Shown in pieces: positions 11,891 through 36,238 of a stretch of 37,000 bases of DNA. Source of the stretch: a virus (taxonomy: Duplodnaviria; Caudoviricetes); IMG/VR virus record IMGVR_UViG_3300017785_003765, positions 1 to 37,000 of that record. The stretch is one strand, 5' to 3'. Position numbers and translations under genes: made by a program. Each line of letters opens with the position of its first letter. The stretch's first letter is position 1. The notes under the pieces are model-generated. The model saw only the letters and a list, made by a program, of their open reading frames with translations, had not been told where the DNA came from and did no database searches.

Positions 11891-11923
11891 CGCCAACCCT
11901 TTCTCTGGTGGTCTTCGCTCTCT

Positions 11924-11961
11924 AAGACGTCGTCTCTAGAAGACGTCGTCTCTCCAAGACG
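11924..11961. repeat. Tandem 14-bp direct repeat AAGACGTCGTCTCT (2 copies plus a partial copy)
   Basis: Copies at 11924-11937 and 11940-11953; AAGACG at 11956. Confidence 0.8.
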
Positions 11962-12142
11962 AAGCGCCCGCACGGGCGCGCTCCCCCTCCCGTCCCACGC
12001 GCCCACCCACCCCCCACGCTGACACCCTGTCGTATCCAGATCGGTTTTTCACGCCGCGGGAGATAACGAGATCTAGGGAGGGGAACGCCGATCCAAAAGC
12101 GATTCGGTTCCTGCGCCGGCCTTGGGTAAACGCCCCATGGCA

Positions 12143-12158
12143 GCACTACATGTAGTGG
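12143..12158. promoter_or_regulatory. NrdR-box-like palindrome
   Basis: GCACTACATGTAGTGG versus consensus acaCwAtATaTwGtgt. Confidence 0.5.
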
Positions 12159-12224
12159 TAGGGGTAGGGGATAGGGCTAGGGGTAGGGGTAGGTCTAGGG
12201 GTAGGCGTAGGGCAGGGCCCTAGA
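12159..12224 (+). repeat. Degenerate (TAGGGG)n G-tract, potential G-quadruplex
   Basis: TAGGGGTAGGGGATAGGGCTAGGGGTAGGGGTAGGTCTAGGGGTAGGCGTAGGGCAGGGCCCTAG. Confidence 0.8.
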
Positions 12225-12354
12225 GCTCGAGCAAGCCACCAGCCTCTGGAGGGTGAGGGGCGGCCAACCGTATCAATAACTTTCCCGCAGAATATCCATA
12301 GGTTATGCATAGGTGATGCATAGTTGCATGTGGTGCGTCATGGGGAGAACAGGA

Positions 12355-15733: not shown

Positions 15734-16594
15734 ATGAATTATTACAACGAGCACGACGCTAAAGCCGCCGCATGGCTGCGCGAACTGATACGTGCGGGGG
15801 AGATTCCCGCAGGAGACGTCGATGAACGATCCATTGTGGATGTGCAACCCGCCGACCTCGCCGGATTTACGCAGTGCCACTTCTTCGCAGGCATCGGCGG
15901 GTGGAGTTACGCCCTCCGACTCGCCGGATGGCCCGATGACCGACCTGTTTGGACAGGTAGTTGTCCCTGCCAGCCCTTCTCGGCCGCAGGCACCCAAGCT
16001 GGCGGCACCGATCCCCGCCATCTTTGGCCGACGTGGCATCGCCTCATCCGCGAGTGCCGCCCTCCAGTCGTCTTTGGTGAGCAGGTTGAAGCAGCGGTTG
16101 GACACGGCTGGCTCGACCTTGTTTGCGATGACCTGGAGCGAGAAGGCTACGCCGTCGGGGCGGTCGGTCTGCCTGCTGCGTGCGTCGGGGCACCGCACAT
16201 CCGGCAGCGGCTGTGGTTCGTGGCCGAGTCCGAAAGCGCAGAACGCAAACGGAGCGGGGCTGCATGGTCAGGGCGCTCAGGATTTACAGACGATGGCGAG
16301 TTGGGCGACACCGGCAGCGCGGGACAGCAAGGGGCCGAACTCCGAGGCGCACGTTACGACGAACGGCACGGGCCGGATGCACCTCGACCAATTAGCGAAC
16401 CAGGCGGTTCACCTTGGGCCGATCTCATCTGGCTCCCCTGCCGAGACGGCAAAGCCCGGCCAACTCAACCCGGCCTTCAGCCGCTGGCTCATGGGGTATC
16501 CGCCCGCGTGGGACGCCTGCGCGGGTACGGCAATGCCATCGTCCCGCAGGTCGCCGCAGAAGTAATCCGCGCCTACCTAGAGACCATACGATGA
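15734..16594 (+). CDS. C5-cytosine DNA methyltransferase, large (alpha) chain, lacking motif IX
   Basis: FFAGIGG (I), GSCPCQPFS (IV), FGEQV (VI), PHIRQRLWFVA (VIII), GYGNAIVPQVA (X). Confidence 0.9.
   Translation: MNYYNEHDAKAAAWLRELIRAGEIPAGDVDERSIVDVQPADLAGFTQCHFFAGIGGWSYALRLAGWPDDRPVWTGSCPCQPFSAAGTQAGGTDPRHLWPTWHRLIRECRPPVVFGEQVEAAVGHGWLDLVCDDLEREGYAVGAVGLPAACVGAPHIRQRLWFVAESESAERKRSGAAWSGRSGFTDDGELGDTGSAGQQGAELRGARYDERHGPDAPRPISEPGGSPWADLIWLPCRDGKARPTQPGLQPLAHGVSARVGRLRGYGNAIVPQVAAEVIRAYLETIR
15822..16565 (+). CDS. C5 methyltransferase small (beta) chain in the +1 overlapping frame
   Basis: Open for 247 aa inside the alpha gene; GGAG RBS; WPSP/WATP TRD-like repeats; motif IX-like LNPAFSRWLMGYP. 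Confidence 0.7.
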   Translation: MNDPLWMCNPPTSPDLRSATSSQASAGGVTPSDSPDGPMTDLFGQVVVPASPSRPQAPKLAAPIPAIFGRRGIASSASAALQSSLVSRLKQRLDTAGSTLFAMTWSEKATPSGRSVCLLRASGHRTSGSGCGSWPSPKAQNANGAGLHGQGAQDLQTMASWATPAARDSKGPNSEAHVTTNGTGRMHLDQLANQAVHLGPISSGSPAETAKPGQLNPAFSRWLMGYPPAWDACAGTAMPSSRRSPQK

Positions 16595-18939: not shown

Positions 18940-19604
18940 TCGAGCATCACGTCGCGCAACGGACTACCGCTTGGTATGCCCTGCGGTGCGGACGGGTGTC
19001 AGCGTCACAAGCCGAGCATGTCCTCGCGAAAGTCAAGGGGAGTGGCGAAGCGGCGGGTCGGCGTGACCTGCGGATGCTGCTGGCACGGGAGCGACTCTCG
19101 GGCTTGCCCGATGACGGCCCGACGTTTGTGTCCGCCGACATGCAGCGTGGAATGGACCTGGAACCCGAGGCCCTGGCCGCGCTGGAACTCTCCGGGCTGC
19201 TGCCGGGGGCTATTCGGGCCGTGGGGTATCTCACCCATGACACCCTGCCGGTGGGCTACTCCCCTGACGGAGTTTGTGGTCCCGGCTACGACGTGCTGGT
19301 GGAAACCAAATGTCCGCGCATGGCGACCCATCTGGACTATCTGGACGCGCCGACGACGATCCCGGCCCGCTACGTCGCGCAACTCACCCATGCGCTGTGG
19401 CTGACGGGCGCGTCTGTCATCCATTTCGCCGCCTACTGTCCGGCGTTTACCCGCGCCCCGTTGTTCCATTTGCCGGTGACGCCGGATCAGGTCGATCTAC
19501 TTGCCTACGAGACGGCGCTTCGCTCGTTCCTCGACGAGGCCGATACCCTCGTCACGCATCTCAACGCGAAATATCCCGTGAAGGAGTCTGTGTATGCCGT
19601 TTAA
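18936..19604 (+). CDS. YqaJ/lambda-exonuclease family nuclease
   Basis: QRTTAWYALRCGRVSAS, MQRGMDLEPEA, GYSPDG, ETKCP, YVAQ. Confidence 0.9.
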   Translation: MIEHHVAQRTTAWYALRCGRVSASQAEHVLAKVKGSGEAAGRRDLRMLLARERLSGLPDDGPTFVSADMQRGMDLEPEALAALELSGLLPGAIRAVGYLTHDTLPVGYSPDGVCGPGYDVLVETKCPRMATHLDYLDAPTTIPARYVAQLTHALWLTGASVIHFAAYCPAFTRAPLFHLPVTPDQVDLLAYETALRSFLDEADTLVTHLNAKYPVKESVYAV

Positions 19605-19860
19605 GAAAGACGAGAACGAACTCGGAGTGCTGTGGATCAAAGCCGCCGCGACCGGGAAGGTGTTTATGTCGGGAAACGTGACCTGCCCCGCCTGCGCGCA
19701 CGAACAGCGCGTGGTCGTGTTCAGCACTCCGTCCCCGAAGAAACACGAGAAGATGCCCGACTGGCGCATCCTCAAAAGTGAACCCCGTGACGGGGCCGCG
19801 CCCGTCAGTGCCGCGCCCCGTGCCGGGCGACCGGCGACGAGCGATGACATCCCCTTCTGA
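19594..19860 (+). CDS. SSB-like protein (DUF736-like) with DDIPF tail
   Basis: LGVLWIK..GKVFMSGNV, PDWRI, C-terminal SDDIPF; CxxC insertion. Confidence 0.7.
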   Translation: MPFKKDENELGVLWIKAAATGKVFMSGNVTCPACAHEQRVVVFSTPSPKKHEKMPDWRILKSEPRDGAAPVSAAPRAGRPATSDDIPF

Positions 19861-20035
19861 GCGGTACGACGCCTATTGCCGCCTTCTGTCGCAGCCCGAT
19901 GAGCCGGAGCTGCGGCGGCGGCGGGCGCATCTCACCCAGCCGGGGGACGCTGACCGGTACCCCCGCGTCTGGCTGCGCCTCGTGGATGCCTATACCGCGT
20001 GGCTCGGTTTGCAATATGACGAACGCCGCATGTAG
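19844..20035 (+). CDS. Hypothetical protein
   Basis: 63 aa filling the gap between overlapping neighbours. Confidence 0.4.
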   Translation: MTSPSERYDAYCRLLSQPDEPELRRRRAHLTQPGDADRYPRVWLRLVDAYTAWLGLQYDERRM

Positions 20036-20399
20036 CGCGGACTTTGCCGCCTTCTGGGCCGCGTATCCCCGGAAGGTGGCGAAGCGATCCGCGCAAACGG
20101 CGTATACGAAGGCCCGTCGCCTGACCGACGCCCAGACGCTGCTGGACGCCGTCGCGGCCTATATCCAGCACAAGCCCGACTACCAGGACTATTGCCATCC
20201 GGCAACATGGCTGCATGGCGGGCGCTGGGAGGACGAATATGCCACGGCCCCGCCCGTTGTCCCTGACGTCTCGGTCGGCGGCATTCAGTACGACTGCCCC
20301 CATCCCACCCCCTGCGCCTCGCGCTGGGCCTGTGGCACCCGTCAACTTGCGGAGCGCGTGGCCTGGCGACACGCCTCATCACAGAGGAACCTATTATGA
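20016..20399 (+). CDS. Protein resembling the C-terminal domain of phage replication initiators
   Basis: FAAFWAAYPRKVAKRSAQTAY...HPATWLHGGRWEDE. Confidence 0.7.
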   Translation: MTNAACSADFAAFWAAYPRKVAKRSAQTAYTKARRLTDAQTLLDAVAAYIQHKPDYQDYCHPATWLHGGRWEDEYATAPPVVPDVSVGGIQYDCPHPTPCASRWACGTRQLAERVAWRHASSQRNLL

Positions 20400-21067
20400 G
20401 TGTCACGAAATACGCGATTACCCTGACCGGCGAGTCTCCGCTGCTGATGCACGCCGACGATCTGAAGTGGCGGTCGGAACTGGACCGCTGGCTGGCGAAC
20501 CCCGAAAACAAACGCCTGAGCAAAGCCGGGGATGACCGGACCCCCGCGTGGAAGTGGCTGGGCTACTGCTATCACGATGGGGTCCGGCTGGGGATGCCCG
20601 CCGACAACCTGATGACGCTGCTGCGCGAAGGCGGTGCACGGGTGCCGACCGGCAAGAAGGGCGCAACGTACAAACGCCAGTCGCAGAGCGGGCTGATTGT
20701 GGACCAGATGCTCTGGCCGCTGCTGACCGGCGACGGCAACCAGGTGCCGTGGGCGAAACTCTCGCCGCTGACGGCGGAGAAGGACTACGCCGTCCACGAA
20801 ACGACCGCCGCCTCGCTGGGGTTTGAATTGTTTGCGAAGGCGGCGAAGGTCGGGATGTCCAAGCATGTGCGGGTGCGTCCTCGGTTCAATGCGTGGAGCG
20901 TCAGCGGCAGCATCACCGTGGTGGATGAGACGATCACGGGGGAGATTCTTGCGCTGATTCTGGAGATGGCGGGGACGTATTGTGGACTGGGCGATTGGCG
21001 TCCCAGTAGCCCCGGTAAACCGGGGCCGTGGGGACGGTTTCGCGCCACGGTGCAGGTGCAGCGATGA
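20396..21067 (+). CDS. Solo Cas7/RAMP-like RNA-binding protein (candidate Vipr-like effector)
   Basis: N-terminal strand ITLTGESPLLMH, MPADNLMTLLREGG, RVRPRFNAW and Gly-rich loop GLGDWRP..GPWGRF, a RAMP/Cas7 layout; no other cas genes present. Confidence 0.75.
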   Translation: MSVTKYAITLTGESPLLMHADDLKWRSELDRWLANPENKRLSKAGDDRTPAWKWLGYCYHDGVRLGMPADNLMTLLREGGARVPTGKKGATYKRQSQSGLIVDQMLWPLLTGDGNQVPWAKLSPLTAEKDYAVHETTAASLGFELFAKAAKVGMSKHVRVRPRFNAWSVSGSITVVDETITGEILALILEMAGTYCGLGDWRPSSPGKPGPWGRFRATVQVQR

Positions 21068-21525
21068 CGAAGTCCCCTCTGTTTGCGGCGGGGATTCCCA
21101 CGGACGCGGATGTCCATCGGCTCTTCGCTGTCTTTGGGGTACCCGCCGAAGGGGTCAAGATGACGTATGCCGAGGTGTCGGAGGTGATCCATGTGGCCCC
21201 TGCGGCCTCACGGTTCCGCACGGTCACGCAGGCGTGGCGGAACCGCCTCGTCCGGGAACACAATATCTACCTCCGGGCGGGGGAGGGCGCGTATGTCGCC
21301 CTCGCGCCCGGCGAACGGGTAGACCTGAGTGCGACGAAACTGCGGATGGGGGTGCGGAGTTTCCGACGCGCCCATGCGGTCGCGACCAGTACGGACTGGA
21401 CGCGTCTGTCGGCAGAAGAGCGGCAACAAGCGGAGCATATCCAGCGGGTGGCGACGACGGTCATCCAGTCAGCCCGGCTGCAAGCGCGGACGACTAAGCC
21501 GGTGTTGCCCGCGGCGATTGGCTAA
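21064..21525 (+). CDS. Accessory protein with a winged-helix-like N-terminus
   Basis: ATGA-coupled to the RAMP gene; MTYAEVSEVI...RFRTVTQAWRNRLVREHNIYLRAGEGAYV; stop codon directly abuts the array. Confidence 0.75.
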   Translation: MTKSPLFAAGIPTDADVHRLFAVFGVPAEGVKMTYAEVSEVIHVAPAASRFRTVTQAWRNRLVREHNIYLRAGEGAYVALAPGERVDLSATKLRMGVRSFRRAHAVATSTDWTRLSAEERQQAEHIQRVATTVIQSARLQARTTKPVLPAAIG

Positions 21526-21984
21526 CAAGGAACGGGGCCTGGCACGGCGTGTCCAGGCGTGGCCGGGCATGGCGTGGCACGGCTGGGTGAGGCAAGGAAC
21601 GGGGCCAGGCACGGCTAGGCACGGCGCGGCGAGGCTTGGCTAGGCGAGGAACGCGGCTCGGCAGGGCAGGGCAGGGCAGGGCGTGGCTTGGCCCGGCAAG
21701 GCTGGGCGAGGAACCGGGCGGGGCGGGGCGGGGCGTGGCTTGGCTAGGCGAGGCTAGGCGGGGCAAGGAACACGGCTCGGCAGGGCGGGGCGTGGCCCGG
21801 CGTGGCAAGGAACGTGGGTAGGCCCGGCGCGGCTGGGCCAGGCTGGGCAGGGCAGGGCACGGCGAGGAACGCGGTCCGGCAGGGCGGGGCGTGGCTTGGC
21901 TAGGCAGGGCACGGCGAGGAACAGGGCCGGGCTCGGCAAGGCATGGCTGGGCGTGGCAGGGCGAGGCACGGCGAGGAACAGGGT
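21526..21984 (+). repeat. Non-coding (GGY-NN)n pentamer array, 8 units delimited by RAGGAAC-NN (candidate guide-RNA array)
   Basis: GGAAC at 21529, 21596, 21648, 21710, 21767, 21809, 21866, 21918, 21975; units of 12, 9, 11, 10, 7, 10, 9, 10 pentamers; 74 of 78 start with GGC and 2 with GGT. Confidence 0.92.
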
Positions 21985-22120
21985 TGAAATCAAAGACGGC
22001 GCGAAGGTCAAGAGCAAGCAGCAGCTGACTGAGGACGAAGTGCAGTTCCACGCGCTGATGGCGGCGGCGGGGGTGACCGTGCAGGTGGTGACCAGCGTCG
22101 AGGAGGCGCTGGCGCTGTGA
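21983..22120 (+). pseudogene. Orphan C-terminal half of a VRR-NUC nuclease
   Basis: VEIKDGAKVKSKQQLTEDEVQFH...VQVVTSVEEALAL has ExK but no upstream PD half or start codon. Confidence 0.7.
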
Positions 22121-22149
22121 GTGTTTACTTTGACAGGACAGGAGCCGAA

Positions 22150-22413
22150 ATGAAAAAGATTGTGAACGTGACGGAAGTGACCGGCGAAGGACTTGATAAA
22201 CTTCTCGGTGAGGTGATCACATTGTTCTGCATGAACTACATCTACACCGGCACACTGGCGGGCGTGAACGGCGAGTGCGTGCTGCTAGAGAATCCGTCCA
22301 TCGTGTATGAGACTGGCCCCTTCTCAGACACGGCGTGGCAGGACGCGCAGCGGCTCCCGAAAGATCTGTATGTGATGAAAGCGTCAATCGAGGCGTTCGG
22401 GATCGTGAAGTAG
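22150..22413 (+). CDS. Sm/LSm-like small beta-barrel protein
   Basis: GGAG RBS; LLGEVITLFCMNYIYTGTLAGVNGECVLLENP (Sm1-like) and LYVMKASIEAF (Sm2-like). Confidence 0.65.
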   Translation: MKKIVNVTEVTGEGLDKLLGEVITLFCMNYIYTGTLAGVNGECVLLENPSIVYETGPFSDTAWQDAQRLPKDLYVMKASIEAFGIVK

Positions 22414-22419
22414 CCGTCA

Positions 22420-22569
22420 ATGCAAGCGCTGGCGCATAAATATCGGTCGCGGGCGCGGTTGTGGTCGCGGTCGTGGTCGGGGTCGCGGTCGGCGTCGTGG
22501 TCGCGGTCGGGGTCGCGGTCGCGGTCGTGGTCGGGGTCGGGGTCGCGGTCGCGGTCGGGAGCGTTGTGA
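22420..22569 (+). CDS. 49-aa Arg/Ser/Trp/Gly repeat peptide (absent from the ORF track)
   Basis: MQALAHKYRSRARLWSRSWSGSRSASWSRSGSRSRSWSGSGSRSRSGAL; its stop overlaps the GTG of the next gene. Confidence 0.5.
   Translation: MQALAHKYRSRARLWSRSWSGSRSASWSRSGSRSRSWSGSGSRSRSGAL
22444..22557 (+). repeat. 19-copy hexamer repeat (C/G/T)GGTCG
   Basis: 16 of 19 hexamers are exact BGGTCG. Confidence 0.9.
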
Positions 22570-23126
22570 TTCATTCAGCCATCGGCCCATTACTGAGGCA
22601 TCTCTACGTGTTCGTGGACACCACGTTTACCGGTCGCGAGACTGGTCAACTCTGCCGGTTCGCCCCAGCGGTGTGGTTTGGCCTGACCAGCACACCGGGC
22701 CGGATGTGGGGCTGCACCGTGCTGTTGGAGAGCGGCGCGGTCTATCGCTCTCTGCCGCCTCAGGCACTGGCGTTCTCGATGCATCCCGATGACCCGTGGA
22801 CCGCGCAGGACGCGCAGACCTGGGACTGCTACAGCAGCGACTTCTCGACGGTGGAATACCCGTATCTGTCGGGGCTGCGGTGTCTCGCCAAGACCGGAGC
22901 GACCACGTCCGAGGGGCGATACCTATTCTCGATTGGGCCGGTCGGTGACGGGTTCTCCGCCCAGCCGGAACAGGCCAAGGAGTTTCATTTTATCGAGCTG
23001 GAGAATGGACGGCTGACCATCCAGCCGACTGACCGGGTGGTCTACGAGGAGAAGAGCTTCACGTCCGGCCCATTGGCCTTCCCGCATGGGCTGCGGGCGC
23101 AAACTGAGGTGTATCGCTGTGAGTAA
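22566..23126 (+). CDS. Conserved phage hypothetical protein
   Basis: GTG start after the repeat; AVWFGLTSTPGR, LLESGAVYRSLP, QTWDCYS, IELENGRLTIQPTDRV. Confidence 0.75.
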   Translation: MIHSAIGPLLRHLYVFVDTTFTGRETGQLCRFAPAVWFGLTSTPGRMWGCTVLLESGAVYRSLPPQALAFSMHPDDPWTAQDAQTWDCYSSDFSTVEYPYLSGLRCLAKTGATTSEGRYLFSIGPVGDGFSAQPEQAKEFHFIELENGRLTIQPTDRVVYEEKSFTSGPLAFPHGLRAQTEVYRCE

Positions 23127-23319
23127 CTTGACCCGCGTCGTCAAGCGGTTGATCTGCCCGCGATGCCGACGCCGCACCGACCGCAAATGGATCGACGAGC
23201 GCGGCTCGAACGGCTATGGCTGGTGTCGCACCTGCGTCCCCGCCGTCGTGGTTGTGCCCTATGACGCCGCGCAGGCGATCCGGCATCGGGCACGGGCCAA
23301 GGCGCAGATTCTTCCATGA
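23119..23319 (+). CDS. Small zinc-ribbon protein
   Basis: CPRC...WCRTC; overlaps both neighbours. Confidence 0.55.
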   Translation: MSNLTRVVKRLICPRCRRRTDRKWIDERGSNGYGWCRTCVPAVVVVPYDAAQAIRHRARAKAQILP

Positions 23320-23597
23320 CATTCCGACGCGGCGGGGCCGGGAAACGTCGAGATGCCATCGAACCGGCCATTGTCGAGGCGCTGAAGGCGCATGGGGTGA
23401 CGGTCTGGCAGATCAGCGGCAGAGGCCTCCCAGACCTCCTGTGCTGGCATCGCCGTCGCTGGACGCCCCTCGAGGTGAAGACAGGCCCCAAGGCCCGTCT
23501 GAGCGCTGTGCAAGCCCTCCAGCAGGCCCCGTGGGCGATCGTGCGGTCGGTGGACGAGGCGCTCCATGCCGTCCTGATGCCGGGGCCGGGGCGGTGA
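23316..23597 (+). CDS. VRR-NUC family nuclease / resolvase
   Basis: RRDAIEPAIVEALKAHG, GLPDLL, LEVKT, IVRSVDEAL. Confidence 0.8.
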   Translation: MTFRRGGAGKRRDAIEPAIVEALKAHGVTVWQISGRGLPDLLCWHRRRWTPLEVKTGPKARLSAVQALQQAPWAIVRSVDEALHAVLMPGPGR

Positions 23598-24040
23598 CCT
23601 CCCCTGTCCTCTTCTCGCGCCGGTCAGACGAGTGGGCCACCCCCGCTGGGCTGTTCGCGGACCTCGATGCCGAGTTCCATTTTGATCTTGATGCCGCCGC
23701 CACGCCCAGCAACGCAGCCGTCCCGCGTTATCTCACCAATGCGCTCAACGCCCAGTGGGAACGCTGTGGCACACGCATCTGGTGCAACCCGCCCTATAGC
23801 CAGATCCGGTCGTTCCTGCATCGCGCCAGTCGGGCCGCTCGGTGTGGGGCCGTGGTGGTCTGTCTAGTTCCTAGCCGCACCGACACACGCTGGTGGCACG
23901 AGTATGTCTGGGATACCGAGCGGCAGCGGCCTCGCGCCGGGGTTAAGGTGCGCTTCCTGAAAGGCCGTCTGAAGTTTGGCGACGGGCACGGCAGTGCGCC
24001 CTTCCCGTCCGCCGTCATCATCTTCCGGTCCCGGGCATGA
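23594..24040 (+). CDS. Phage DNA N6-adenine methyltransferase (Dam-like)
   Basis: DEWATP, FDLDAAA, WCNPPYS, LVPSRTDTRWWH, FLKGRLKF, APFPS. Confidence 0.92.
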   Translation: MTSPVLFSRRSDEWATPAGLFADLDAEFHFDLDAAATPSNAAVPRYLTNALNAQWERCGTRIWCNPPYSQIRSFLHRASRAARCGAVVVCLVPSRTDTRWWHEYVWDTERQRPRAGVKVRFLKGRLKFGDGHGSAPFPSAVIIFRSRA

Positions 24041-24189: not shown

Positions 24190-24292
24190 GTTCTGCGGTG
24201 CCGCCTGTCGCCAGCGGTATCACGCGCTCGGACGTGTCCCTGCGCCTGCGGCAGTGCCCGTGCGCGGCCTCCTCATGGAGCGAACTCGATGA
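24092..24292 (+). CDS. Small zinc-finger protein
   Basis: CPYCDQPL...[13 protein letters not shown]; stop overlaps the next ATG; start uncertain. Confidence 0.5.
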
Positions 24293-24954
24293 TCGAAGAC
24301 GCCGAAGTCCGCATTGAATATACGTTCAAGAATGCGCGGCTCTATCACGCGATTTGTGACGCCGCGTATCAAGACAAAGATTATCGCCGGTCCTTTAGCC
24401 GGGGGTGCGTGTCGTCGTTCTGCCGCTTCTACAGTCTGCCGCAGGGGCAAATCAATGAGTTATTGAACCTGCGGATTAGTCCCCTCTTAGCGATCCGTCC
24501 GACCGGGACATATCGCCCCATCTGCATCACGCTCTCCAACATTCTCGGGATCGACTGCCACGTCCTGTTCCCTCACGCCCTGTATGCCCAGGTGTGGCCG
24601 CGTGGCGTGGCGAGGGACGTTCCCCTCGCGATGTTCGTCGGACTTGGAGCCGCTCGTCATCTCACCCTCCCCGAATCCAGCGCCGAGGCCGTGGTGCAAC
24701 GCGAGATGCGCGAACGACTCGCGGGGGCGCTGGAAACCCTCACGCCGCGAGAGGCGCTCGTGATCACGCAGCGGTTTGGGCTGGACGGCAACGGGGAGCG
24801 GACGTTGGAGGAACTCGGGTCGGAACGCGGGTGTTCCCGCGAACGCATCCGCCAGATCGAAGCCAAGGCGCTTCGCAAGCTGCGCCATCCGTCACGAACG
24901 CGGAAACTCTGGCCCCTGCTCTGGTCAAAAGCGCCCGACGCGGCGAAAGCGTAA
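24289..24954 (+). CDS. Sigma-70 region-4 domain protein
   Basis: [27 protein letters not shown]...[21 protein letters not shown]; no recognisable region 2. Confidence 0.85.
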
Positions 24955-32980: not shown

Positions 32981-34706
32981 AATTGACTCCAAGGTCTTCG
33001 CCGGGATTAACAACTTCCTCAGTGGGCAACGCTGACATGCTACGGACCAGTCTCCATTTCATTGTTGCGCTGTCTCTTGTGTCTGAGTACGCATCTGGCA
33101 CCAGCGGCAACCAAATGCGAATGACATCGGCGTCGCTTGGACGTGAACCTTGTTGCCCAACAGCTAGATTGCCAGCAATCGCAAGACGCGCATCTTGATA
33201 CGTTTTAAATGCAGGGTCGTTACCAAACACCGCAGCAGAACCGCGTTTGATTGCGTTCGCGCGTTGTTTTACTCCAACTTTGTCAATGATTGACAAAGAC
33301 AAGGCCTGGACCTCATCAACAGTCCTAGCCAAATTGCCCCTGCCAACTTGCTTGTTTCTCATGTCAGCCGTATCTGGACGCGTGGCTCCGCTTGAACGAA
33401 TTTCGTCAGGCGTCATGTATCGCTCTTGCTCATCAGCGTCCTTTGCCCAAGACATGCCTTGCTTCTTAGACGAGTTCAACGCGATGTTCCACGAGTTTTG
33501 CAATGAAGCGTTGCTGCGAGAGTTCCTACCTTTTTCAAGCTTGTCAGCAGCATCAATCTCCGACTGCACGTATCGCACAGGGTCGTTGTTGACTGCCGCC
33601 AATCTCACTTCAACTTCGGTTGGTGCCCTCTTCGGAGACGAAGCGCCTTGAGCTACAACTTCGTTTGTATCGGCATCTACAAGCTTTTGGTCAACGCCAA
33701 CACTTACAAGCCTGGGCGTTACGTCGCCAACAGCTTGAACCAGCTTCTTATACGCAAGCAATTGCTGGTCTTGTGGCAGTTGCTTGATAGCACCAATCTG
33801 CTGCTTGACCATCTCCAACTGTTGCGTTGGGAACACGCCGTTGTTGCTGTATTTCTCAACCAGTTGATCGACCGCTGATGGAATCTGAGAGTCCGCAAAC
33901 TTCAAGATACGCGCGGCATCGTTTCTTGCCACCGCGAGTGCGGATGCCTGGTGTTTTTCCATGTCCTCGTTTGAGGCCCGCATCAACGCCAATGATGGTT
34001 GTGCTTCCGCACTCAGACCAGCCGCCGCCATCTGTTTGGCATACGCATCAATGTCCCACAAGTCCAGCCCGTTGACACCACCAACGCTCATGCGTTTTGA
34101 AGTGTTGGTGACGTTCGTTATCTCAGGAACAGACATCGTCGGCGTCAAACGAGGCGCTCGCGCTGCGTTGCCTGACATCGATACCGAAGGAAACACGTCA
34201 GCCAGTCGTTGCGATGCCGGTTGTTGACCAAAGACGTTGGCGTTCCGCAGCATTCCACCAAACGTGTCTGAAGACGTGGCTGTGCCATCAGGCACAAACG
34301 TATCAGGGCTAAACGATGGCAACATCCGGTCTGACAAACTCCCAGCTTGACTAGGCGTAACCGTTGTCACATTCGGATTAGCTTGAAACTCGCTAAACTT
34401 CACACGCGCCGCATCTTGACGCGCCTGCGCGGCGTCTTCAAGCTTCTGCTGCTGCACCAGCCGCGCTTGCTGTGCCGTCTTAAACGCTTGATCCTTACCG
34501 GCTTGAATCTGAGCGGGGATGCCGCTCACAATCTTGCCCACGCTCTCGACGGCCCCGCCATACGCCTGCCCACGCACCTGTGCCGCCTGCGCCTGGGCAT
34601 TCGCCACGTCAATCAGCGCCTTCGCCTTCGCATCCTCGCCACGACTCAACAGCTCGGCAATGGTGCCGACGTAGGGGTTCCGATACGCCTGAAAGTTAAA
34701 CGCCAT
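32967..34706 (-). CDS. Ejection (DNA transfer) protein
   Basis: 579 aa, Ala/Gln-rich, helical; synteny. Confidence 0.65.
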   Translation of the reverse strand: MAFNFQAYRNPYVGTIAELLSRGEDAKAKALIDVANAQAQAAQVRGQAYGGAVESVGKIVSGIPAQIQAGKDQAFKTAQQARLVQQQKLEDAAQARQDAARVKFSEFQANPNVTTVTPSQAGSLSDRMLPSFSPDTFVPDGTATSSDTFGGMLRNANVFGQQPASQRLADVFPSVSMSGNAARAPRLTPTMSVPEITNVTNTSKRMSVGGVNGLDLWDIDAYAKQMAAAGLSAEAQPSLALMRASNEDMEKHQASALAVARNDAARILKFADSQIPSAVDQLVEKYSNNGVFPTQQLEMVKQQIGAIKQLPQDQQLLAYKKLVQAVGDVTPRLVSVGVDQKLVDADTNEVVAQGASSPKRAPTEVEVRLAAVNNDPVRYVQSEIDAADKLEKGRNSRSNASLQNSWNIALNSSKKQGMSWAKDADEQERYMTPDEIRSSGATRPDTADMRNKQVGRGNLARTVDEVQALSLSIIDKVGVKQRANAIKRGSAAVFGNDPAFKTYQDARLAIAGNLAVGQQGSRPSDADVIRIWLPLVPDAYSDTRDSATMKWRLVRSMSALPTEEVVNPGEDLGVNFGDK

Positions 34707-36238
34707 TAGGCCCCCGCCGCGAATTGGATGTCGTTCATCCGGTCGCGCTCGTATTGCCGCTGCTGATTCGTTTTCAGGGTAAACGCTGCGACCGCATCAT
34801 TGTAGGCTTGCTGCGAACGGTTGTAGGCGTCTGCCTGCTGCTGCTGATACAGATTCGTGTTCACGCCAAATGCGCCAGACCGCCGCGCTTCGGTATCCTG
34901 GTTGTAGGCGTTCTGCGCCAACGCATTCGTGGAATATTGCTGATAGGCGTTCTGCGCGTTCGTGTTGTACGCCCCGGCCCGATTCGCTTCGTTCGCGTTG
35001 TACGCGCCAAAGGCGTTGCCGTAGTTCGTCTGATACGCGCCAGCGCGATTCGCCTCGTTGGCGTTATACGCATTGAGCGCGTTCCCGTAGTTCGTCTGAT
35101 ACGCCCCGGCCCGATTCGCTTCGTTCGTGTTGTACGTGTTCAGGTTGCGGTTGTAGACGTTCCCGTACTCCTGAGACGCGGCCTGCTGGCCATAGTCTAA
35201 GATGCCCTTCATGTTGCCACCCGTGTTGGTGACCCCACGCGCTGCACCCGACCGTTCCAACGCTTTCTGGCCTTCGCTCAAACGGAACTGATAGCCGGGA
35301 TCTTGCCCCATGTCTGCCGCGGTCGGCGCGGCAAACGGCGTGGCCGCTTGATACTCATCTCGGCCAAACGGCGTGGCCGCCTGATACTCGTTCCGCGCAA
35401 ACGGCGTGGCCTGCTGATACGGAGCCGGAGCCTGATACTCGGGCGCTTGATAGGCCGCACCGGGCGTATACGTGCCGGGGTTCTGAATCGGGCCTTGCGG
35501 CTGCATCAGGTCGCCCAGCGTGCGCGGTGTGGGCGCTTCGCCCGGACGCTGATTCTGTAAGCCTTCCGGACCCAGCCCAAACGTCGCTAATCGCGCCGCT
35601 CGATCGGCAGGTGTTTCCTTGGCTGCGGCGGTGGGGCCATCGGCAGACTTCGGCCCTTCCGGCCCTCGCGGGACATTCTTCCATTGCCCGTTTTCGAGGA
35701 CCAAGTAGCCAGTCTTCAGACCGATGGTGCCATTGCCGGAATAGTAGAACGGCGAACCGTCTGTCCCGGGCGGCAGATTAAATTCTGTAGCCGCCAACGC
35801 AATGGCCGCATCGCGATCCCTCGTGCCGCCGGATGCATCCTTGGTGTTGAGCATCCGAACCAAGTAGTCATTGATCGTTTCACCAGCGTTTTTCGCCGTG
35901 TCAGGAGTATCAGTGGTTTTACGAGGATCGAGAGCCTTCGGATCGACATCTTCAGAGGTGCCAAAGTCGTACCCCGCAGGAGGGGTTCTTGTACTGGTTT
36001 TTTCGTTATTGTGATCGCGCCTCGCCTGCTGAGCACGGGGCGAACTCGGGATGTCATTCGTGATCCTTACCCAATCAGTCTCAGGGACCAAAACGGGAGA
36101 ATCATCAAAATCACTAGGCTCATACGCTAGACCCTCAAACTCCGCTTGTGTCGGCAGGCGGAAGTAATTCTGCCAATACAGCTTCCGCAATAACGCGATG
36201 CGGTTGCTACGAGTGACAGCGTCGTCTTTTTCTGACAT
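34706..36238 (-). CDS. Ejection protein with internal repeats
   Basis: DPGYQFRLSEGQKALERSGAARG...DYGQQAASQEYGN motif typical of P22-like DNA transfer proteins; YQAATPF and YNANEANRAGAY repeats. Confidence 0.75.
   Translation of the reverse strand: MSEKDDAVTRSNRIALLRKLYWQNYFRLPTQAEFEGLAYEPSDFDDSPVLVPETDWVRITNDIPSSPRAQQARRDHNNEKTSTRTPPAGYDFGTSEDVDPKALDPRKTTDTPDTAKNAGETINDYLVRMLNTKDASGGTRDRDAAIALAATEFNLPPGTDGSPFYYSGNGTIGLKTGYLVLENGQWKNVPRGPEGPKSADGPTAAAKETPADRAARLATFGLGPEGLQNQRPGEAPTPRTLGDLMQPQGPIQNPGTYTPGAAYQAPEYQAPAPYQQATPFARNEYQAATPFGRDEYQAATPFAAPTAADMGQDPGYQFRLSEGQKALERSGAARGVTNTGGNMKGILDYGQQAASQEYGNVYNRNLNTYNTNEANRAGAYQTNYGNALNAYNANEANRAGAYQTNYGNAFGAYNANEANRAGAYNTNAQNAYQQYSTNALAQNAYNQDTEARRSGAFGVNTNLYQQQQADAYNRSQQAYNDAVAAFTLKTNQQRQYERDRMNDIQFAAGA

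Follow-up and report, generated by a model that had tools for sequence, protein, structure and literature searches.

A phage VIPR locus with a compact, tail-less array of GGY/NN units, one of which is predicted to guide against primase-helicase zinc-finger codons

The locus described here is a plus-strand cassette with the order vipr, vap1, array and without a nuclease: the vipr ORF (20396-21067) overlaps a vap1-like ORF (21064-21525), and eight units of GGY/NN pentamers follow at 21536-21974. The window, that is, the whole 37,000-nucleotide stretch that we analysed, covers an entire 37 kb record with a 123-nt direct terminal repeat, and a domain scan of its ORFs found portal, terminase and P22-like coat genes. 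The available parts of four preprints (10.64898/2026.04.26.720920, 10.64898/2026.04.26.720927, 10.64898/2026.10.15.759431 and 10.64898/2026.10.21.760802, all of 2026) describe VIPR, a CRISPR-related system, as the Vipr protein, a vap gene and vrRNAs made of GGY/NN repeats; the NN bases of the vrRNA pair with double-stranded DNA with one base skipped, and the transcription of rival elements is repressed. VIPR loci are usually encoded by phages or prophages, and the structural genes and the terminal repeat place the present one in that setting.

The array is not an assembly artefact. Single contigs of two sequencing runs (X2 and X5) bridge the array, match both flanking parts without differences and keep the spacing of the 201-base middle, the flanking parts having been compared base by base and the middle by length. 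The runs that match this phage best are freshwater metagenomes. One IMG/VR locus (L001) has an identical array and a single difference from the window in 10747 bases; it may share the window's source. The array end is directly adjoined by the 3' half of a VRR-NUC/resolvase-like gene (21983-22120, plus strand), which is not part of VIPR; in the phages L004/L005 the gene is intact (94 aa; 7144-7428 in L004), and its C-terminal 45 aa there are 87% identical to the half found here. Its first 49 codons, present in L004/L005, are absent in the window; this 5' half was probably lost by a deletion, which may also have removed further units from the array end.

No sigma-70 promoter site and no terminator site were found at 19500-22700, and the array gave no Rfam match, hammerheads included. 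Among the runs listed, we found no RNA run containing the array; two RNA-labelled wastewater runs yielded only short or unlike pieces. One such run (X19), compared with window positions 21772-21963, contained GGY/NN-like contigs of other organisms at a summed depth in the thousands and vipr-like pieces at depths in the tens; the run is marked as probably DNA, depth is a poor measure in it, and we record it as a lead only. Elsewhere the window encodes a C5 methylase, a Dam-type methylase and a sigma-70 region 4 protein (15734-16594, 23216-24040 and 24289-24954). An intergenic segment between divergent gene blocks (11900-12330) contains a 16-nt repeat (11919-11961), ten GTAGGG-like copies (12152-12217) and an 11-nt repeat (12293-12323), all of them possible signals for packaging or an origin. 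At 22444-22557, about 470 nt downstream of the array, a 6-nt CGGTCG-like unit that is unrelated to the pentamer code occurs nineteen times, and 33-nt coding repeats at 34957-35136 and 35331-35420 lie in a minus-strand gene (34706-36238) for an unannotated structural-region protein.

The vipr gene encodes a 223-aa RAMP (Cas7-like) protein that is predicted from profile, model and residue alignment to bind guides. The protein has 1611 relatives, and a profile of 84 homologs retrieved one significant solved structure, PDB 36pp_D ("SUSP1 Vipr protein", E 3.5e-16). Its structural model (pLDDT 94) resembles Csm/Cas7 RAMPs by structure comparison. Residues H19, R161, C196, D200, W201 and R202 align with SUSP1 H17, R138, C173, D177, W178 and R179, six of the positions given as SUSP1 guide contacts in the available text of 10.64898/2026.04.26.720927; the SUSP1 contact positions K33 and E71/M72 have no counterpart in the aligned protein. 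It is a single RAMP with G-loop and thumb, homologous to a known Vipr, and the sole RAMP-like match in the window, where no Cas6-like second RAMP was found. Its identity to matches in the phage collection is only ~27-30%, and it sits on a distant branch of a quick-method tree of 71 proteins, built without L001, L007 and duplicates.

The vap1-like accessory gene was assigned by family HMM and linkage and encodes 153 aa with a predicted winged-helix-like fold, the fold matches to winged helix being weak (E 0.02 or worse). In a search of 4 sequences, the HMM of its family matches SUSP1 vap1 with 41 bits and E 3.5e-14, and a homolog of the 153-aa protein lies near vipr in 73/80 related loci. The locus thus carries the vap1 accessory gene of type II (SUSP1-like) VIPR and has the minimal VIPR make-up, in which a vap gene accompanies vipr and a CRISPR array is absent: no CRISPR-type repeat-spacer array with contiguous spacers is present in the window, and no cas1, cas2, cas6 or other cas families were found among the ORFs scanned (30 per library, part of the ORFs). 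Judged by its sequence, its identity as VIPR appears nearly certain.

The eight units lie on the plus strand between nine GGAAC delimiters (21529 to 21979). In order, their NN strings are, for U1 (21536-21595; 12 pentamers, one of them non-GGY), CT AC GT CA GT CG AT GT AC TG GA AA; for U2 (21603-21647; 9 pentamers), CA AC TA AC GC GA TT TA GA; for U3 (21655-21709; 11 pentamers), TC AG AG AG AG GT TT CC AA TG GA; for U4 (21717-21766; 10 pentamers, 4 NN in common with U7), GG GG GG GT TT TA GA TA GG AA; for U5 (21774-21808; 7 pentamers), TC AG GG GT CC GT AA; for U6 (21816-21865; 10 pentamers, the predicted primase-helicase guide), TA CC GC TG CA TG AG AG AC GA; for U7 (21873-21917; 9 pentamers, with a core conserved in related phages), CC AG GG GT TT TA AG AC GA; and for U8 (21925-21974; 10 pentamers), CG TC AA AT TG GT AG GA AC GA. 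Re-reading the sequence reproduced all eight strings of the original prediction and its count of 78 pentamers with no indel inside the units (12, 9, 11, 10, 7, 10, 9, 10); what that account had left out were the variable 2 nt after GGAAC, the two adjacent genes and the identity as VIPR. GGY-NN accounts for 76/78 pentamers, the exceptions being GTC-CA (21551-21555) and GGG-TA (21816-21820).

Runs of at least 4 contain 73 of the pentamers, the longest run being 11, compared with at most 8 pentamers and a longest run of 5 in 2000 dinucleotide-based shuffles; elsewhere in the window the longest run is 3. Like VIPR arrays, this one consists of adjacent YNNGG tandem tracts of at least 4 repeats with variable NN, here eight tracts of 7-12 pentamers. 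The fixed GGY with variable NN, the linkage to vipr and the distance from chance uphold the claim that it is unlike a neutral microsatellite, and the proposal of a dinucleotide code read with gaps is borne out in the form of a predicted VIPR guide array. Its folding signal (z -4.8) vanishes when only NN is permuted (z +1.2) and is therefore an effect of the scaffold.

After each unit come GGAAC and two variable bases; unit length is therefore 5n+2, and every junction shifts the register by 2 nt. The first GGAAC-NN junction (21529-21535, plus strand) stands 3 nt after the vap stop codon, and no 40-nt tail follows the last (21975-21981, plus strand). The last NN pair is AA or GA in 8/8 units. 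That this final RA belongs to the delimiter, as had been proposed, agrees with two observations: GA/AA makes up 109/140 last pairs before GGAAC in the family versus 256/1238 internal pairs, and the final GA of U6 matches the target in only 1/69 of the metagenome hits described below. The 7-nt junction is the commonest in the Vipr family (124/258 distinct junctions), and 26/81 family loci, with duplicates dropped, have at least two junctions of 7 or 12 nt. In the 71-protein tree, a 32-member branch (support 99) contains 0 of 25 short-junction loci, a pattern that we take as clustering only, because kin share labels. Nine loci of the same Vipr family have tracts offset by 1 nt, like published staggered arrays (e.g. 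L071 11391-11542), and very long tracts occur as well, with 18 pentamers in L004/L005 (L004 6847-6936) and 40 in L071 (10665-10864); published tracts have 9-16. Each type II guide is capped by a conserved ~40-nt structured tail, and sequence comparison found long tails on the SUSP1 guides; the junctions here are 7 nt. We assign no VIPR type because the locus combines a type II-like working and vap1 with junctions that are yet too short for that tail.

Units had been proposed to diversify by duplication, slippage and recombination of pentamer blocks rather than by Cas1-type acquisition, and no Cas1-type acquisition genes were indeed found among the ORFs scanned. Block duplication stood up across the family, where 13/62 arrays have a block of at least 4 NN common to two units (2.1 expected), but is marginal in this array, with a longest common block of 4 NN (U4/U7, p 0.021) and two pairs with at least 3 NN (p 0.06). 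Slippage was not supported: identical neighbours number 6 versus 4.3 expected here (p 0.26) and 214 versus 234.5 expected in the family. Parts of the core said to be common to U3, U4, U5 and U7 do recur, but not as an array-internal matter alone; the core is also carried by the phages L002 and L004/L005, and for this reason we regard it as inherited and probably selected. Across relatives, the vipr genes of L002-L004 are 83-85% identical in DNA and their arrays mostly different; close relatives with 92-93% identical Vipr have almost wholly different arrays. U7 has 7 NN in common with one L004 unit, and U7, one L002 unit and two L004 units all begin with the uncommon GGT scaffold (21/342 pentamers). 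The conservation of U7 points to inheritance under selection, as far as sequence comparison can tell.

Targets were sought in the large collections by the published 1-nt-skip rule, with exact matches only and for the seven units other than the short U5. U6 had 38 hits in IMG/VR, of which 26 lie antisense to the codons of a single protein motif, so placed that the skipped base is the third of the codon; 25 of these were assigned by a motif rule and one (L083) by inspection and Pfam, and three pairs are near-duplicates. The motif corresponds to zinc-finger codons of primase-helicase genes, the skipped base being the wobble, and 20/21 such ORFs scanned carry Toprim, AAA_25, D5, DnaB or CHC2 domains. 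In metagenomes, a longer U6 pattern that also takes in the non-GGY pentamer, with one two-fold position, and the 2 nt behind GGAAC had 69 hits from 52 distinct contexts. The primase motif contained 62/69, all 62 at 19/20 bases with one U-G pair; there was no 20/20 primase match, and the only one of the 69 hits that is exact lies elsewhere than in a primase. Of the viral hits, only 3/26 have the 2 nt that follow GGAAC. A domain scan of 85/130 ORFs covered 13 U6-target loci, not counting L265: an integrase or recombinase occurs in 7, a terminase in 1 and a capsid gene in 1. In an underpowered comparison over 401 genomes of an arbitrary phylum, U6 with 2 mismatches had 5 hits, one of them a primase, and its reversed control had 2. 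The window itself encodes no such primase zinc-finger motif, and none of the units finds a self-target in it at the 80% level; a target with the 1-nt skip on the wobble was found for U6 only. A selection effect bears on U6 because it was scanned first, its translation having looked familiar. That U6 is a guide against primase-helicase zinc-finger codons is a strong prediction from sequence, and its target site is most likely the start region of the primase-helicase gene.

A convergent target was found for only 1/7 scanned units, the hits of U1, U2, U3, U4, U7 and U8 being chance-like. Exact 16-base cores had 2 (U1), 15 (U2), 16 (U3), 6 (U4) and 5 (U8) hits in IMG/VR; none spans a whole unit, and no plausible gene family converges. 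The U7 core (14 fixed and 2 two-fold bases) had 41 hits, many of them near-identical copies and one at 18/18 (L145); they include small groups, among them three satellite-type primase loci at 16/18, and are not decisive. U7 gave 5 hits in GTDB genomes (3 independent, no convergence), and 5 related records lack its pattern. Among the hit elements compared, none matched two units. Guides of the window matched 79 unmasked related loci no better than shuffled ones, and hence these loci give no sign of anti-vipr or anti-vrRNA targeting. In skip controls, a weak test confined to 1.1 Mb of related loci, 1, 4, 0 and 3 of 234 family guides reached 90% at skips 0-3; the sole perfect match was at skip 1, for the L052 and L064 guides against a 305-aa gene in L019, in codon register. 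A conserved guide of the hairpin-tailed VIPR loci L052, L064, L072 and L073 matches this NTPase-like gene (8277 region) at 16/16 and 17/18, and L019 is a Vipr-bearing phage. A 22/24 match of an L004 unit to L132 was judged to be chance, as the gene at the site looks structural and the phage is unrelated.

Taken together, we consider it quite probable that the array is a vrRNA array of a phage VIPR locus, that U6 matches a primase-helicase zinc finger with one base skipped, and that the locus silences replication genes of rival integrated elements, the last because of what the one-skip reading of U6 matches. The array would be transcribed together with vipr and vap1 or just after them. By homology to SUSP1, one Vipr protomer would cover each pentamer, hiding GGY and presenting NN. 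The 2-nt shift at GGAAC-NN would end each filament, and trimming of the unprotected junction would leave ~40-65-nt guides, the last RA serving as a cap that is not read. The NN pairs would bind double-stranded DNA with every third base, the codon wobble, skipped, as homology suggests and U6 supports here; binding would then, again by homology, block transcription with the assistance of Vap1. Statistics support a picture in which arrays change by duplication of units or blocks, by NN point change and by turnover of units, some of which selection retains.

The match of U6 to primase could be a coincidence in a true VIPR array, the real targets of all units being missing from collections. It is one hit among seven units and two strands, chosen after the motif was recognised, with no second unit on the same elements and no primase hit at 20/20. 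However, 62/69 hits converge on one motif of a replication gene that mobile elements carry, in frame and with the wobble as the skipped base; six other scans show nothing comparable, and a rough estimate for eight random guides is ~1% or less. We consider such a coincidence quite improbable. Most units (U3, U4, U5) might instead be non-functional by-products of duplication or decoys of U7, given the blocks in common with U7 and the lack of targets found; the common blocks in this array are nevertheless of marginal significance (p 0.02-0.1), slippage does not exceed chance, all three units keep an intact scaffold and exact-match scans miss one-mismatch targets, and we judge this reading unlikely.

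A serious, if less probable, alternative is that the array remains one unprocessed RNA with several Vipr filaments, in which GGAAC is only a register break and no cut site. The array has no tail, no Rfam match and no terminator-like site, and there is no Cas6-like second RAMP; on the other hand, the RA bias before GGAAC suggests a recognised end, and the legend of fig. S18 in 10.64898/2026.04.26.720920 describes staggered arrays as individually processed vrRNAs. Short reading frames cross the array, as a low-complexity coding region (or a neutral microsatellite) might have it, but they lie in different frames and match no family, whereas GGY is fixed and NN variable, linkage to vipr is tight in related loci and the U6 targets converge. 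This last reading has next to no chance and is refuted by the link of the array to Vipr and by what is published on how arrays of this kind function.

Returning to the vrRNA array, a broader interpretation is offered tentatively, and we would not ourselves expect it to hold in full. The locus may represent a tail- and ribozyme-free VIPR subtype in which the 2-nt shift at GGAAC-NN is the guide boundary and eight to twelve guides fit into ~500 nt; its guides would be directed at motifs that entire protein families conserve, the primase zinc finger in this case, and so give broad cover against many satellites and integrated elements, while the arrays would record how blocks are duplicated and recoded into new guides. 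As a multiplex guide format, compact arrays without tails would be the smallest in VIPR, and primase adds a predicted target class to the system. Relatives with near-identical Vipr but different arrays make guide turnover directly comparable. The locus is also useful because the available parts of 10.64898/2026.04.26.720927 and 10.64898/2026.10.15.759431 do not address vrRNA processing and acquisition.

Among known systems, type II VIPR (the SUSP1 and P. fulva clades), as described in the available parts of 10.64898/2026.04.26.720920, 10.64898/2026.04.26.720927 and 10.64898/2026.10.15.759431, resembles the present locus in having vipr, vap1 and a downstream GGY/NN array in a phage, in its guide-binding residues, in skipping one base at the wobble, in having as target a gene that is conserved in rival elements and in the lack of a self-target. 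It differs in having four units of 9-16 pentamers, where eight contiguous units of 7-12 are found here, a 40-nt pseudoknot tail instead of a 7-nt GGAAC-NN junction, and a recombinase rather than a predicted primase-helicase target. The staggered vrRNA arrays of fig. S18 (10.64898/2026.04.26.720920) are likewise tail-less and joined end to start with a register shift; according to the legend they have 1-nt overlapping positions, in contrast to the 2-nt shift via GGAAC-NN here. The two may belong to the same class, and as the staggered arrays were compared by description only, we do not claim the GGAAC-NN junction as new. "GGAAC" is absent from the supplement text of 10.64898/2026.04.26.720920, and "primase" from the available main text of the October preprint 10.64898/2026.10.15.759431; data S1-S4 of the former may already include this locus type, and a literature search found no further VIPR paper beyond the four preprints. 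The backbone RAMPs of class 1 CRISPR-Cas (Cas7, Csm3/Csm5) share the RRM fold with thumb and G-loop and the filament on guide RNA, whereas here no cas1, cas2 or cas6 was found, a repeat-spacer array is lacking and pairing is non-contiguous. The VIPR system itself is already published, and the locus in the window is a further VIPR locus.
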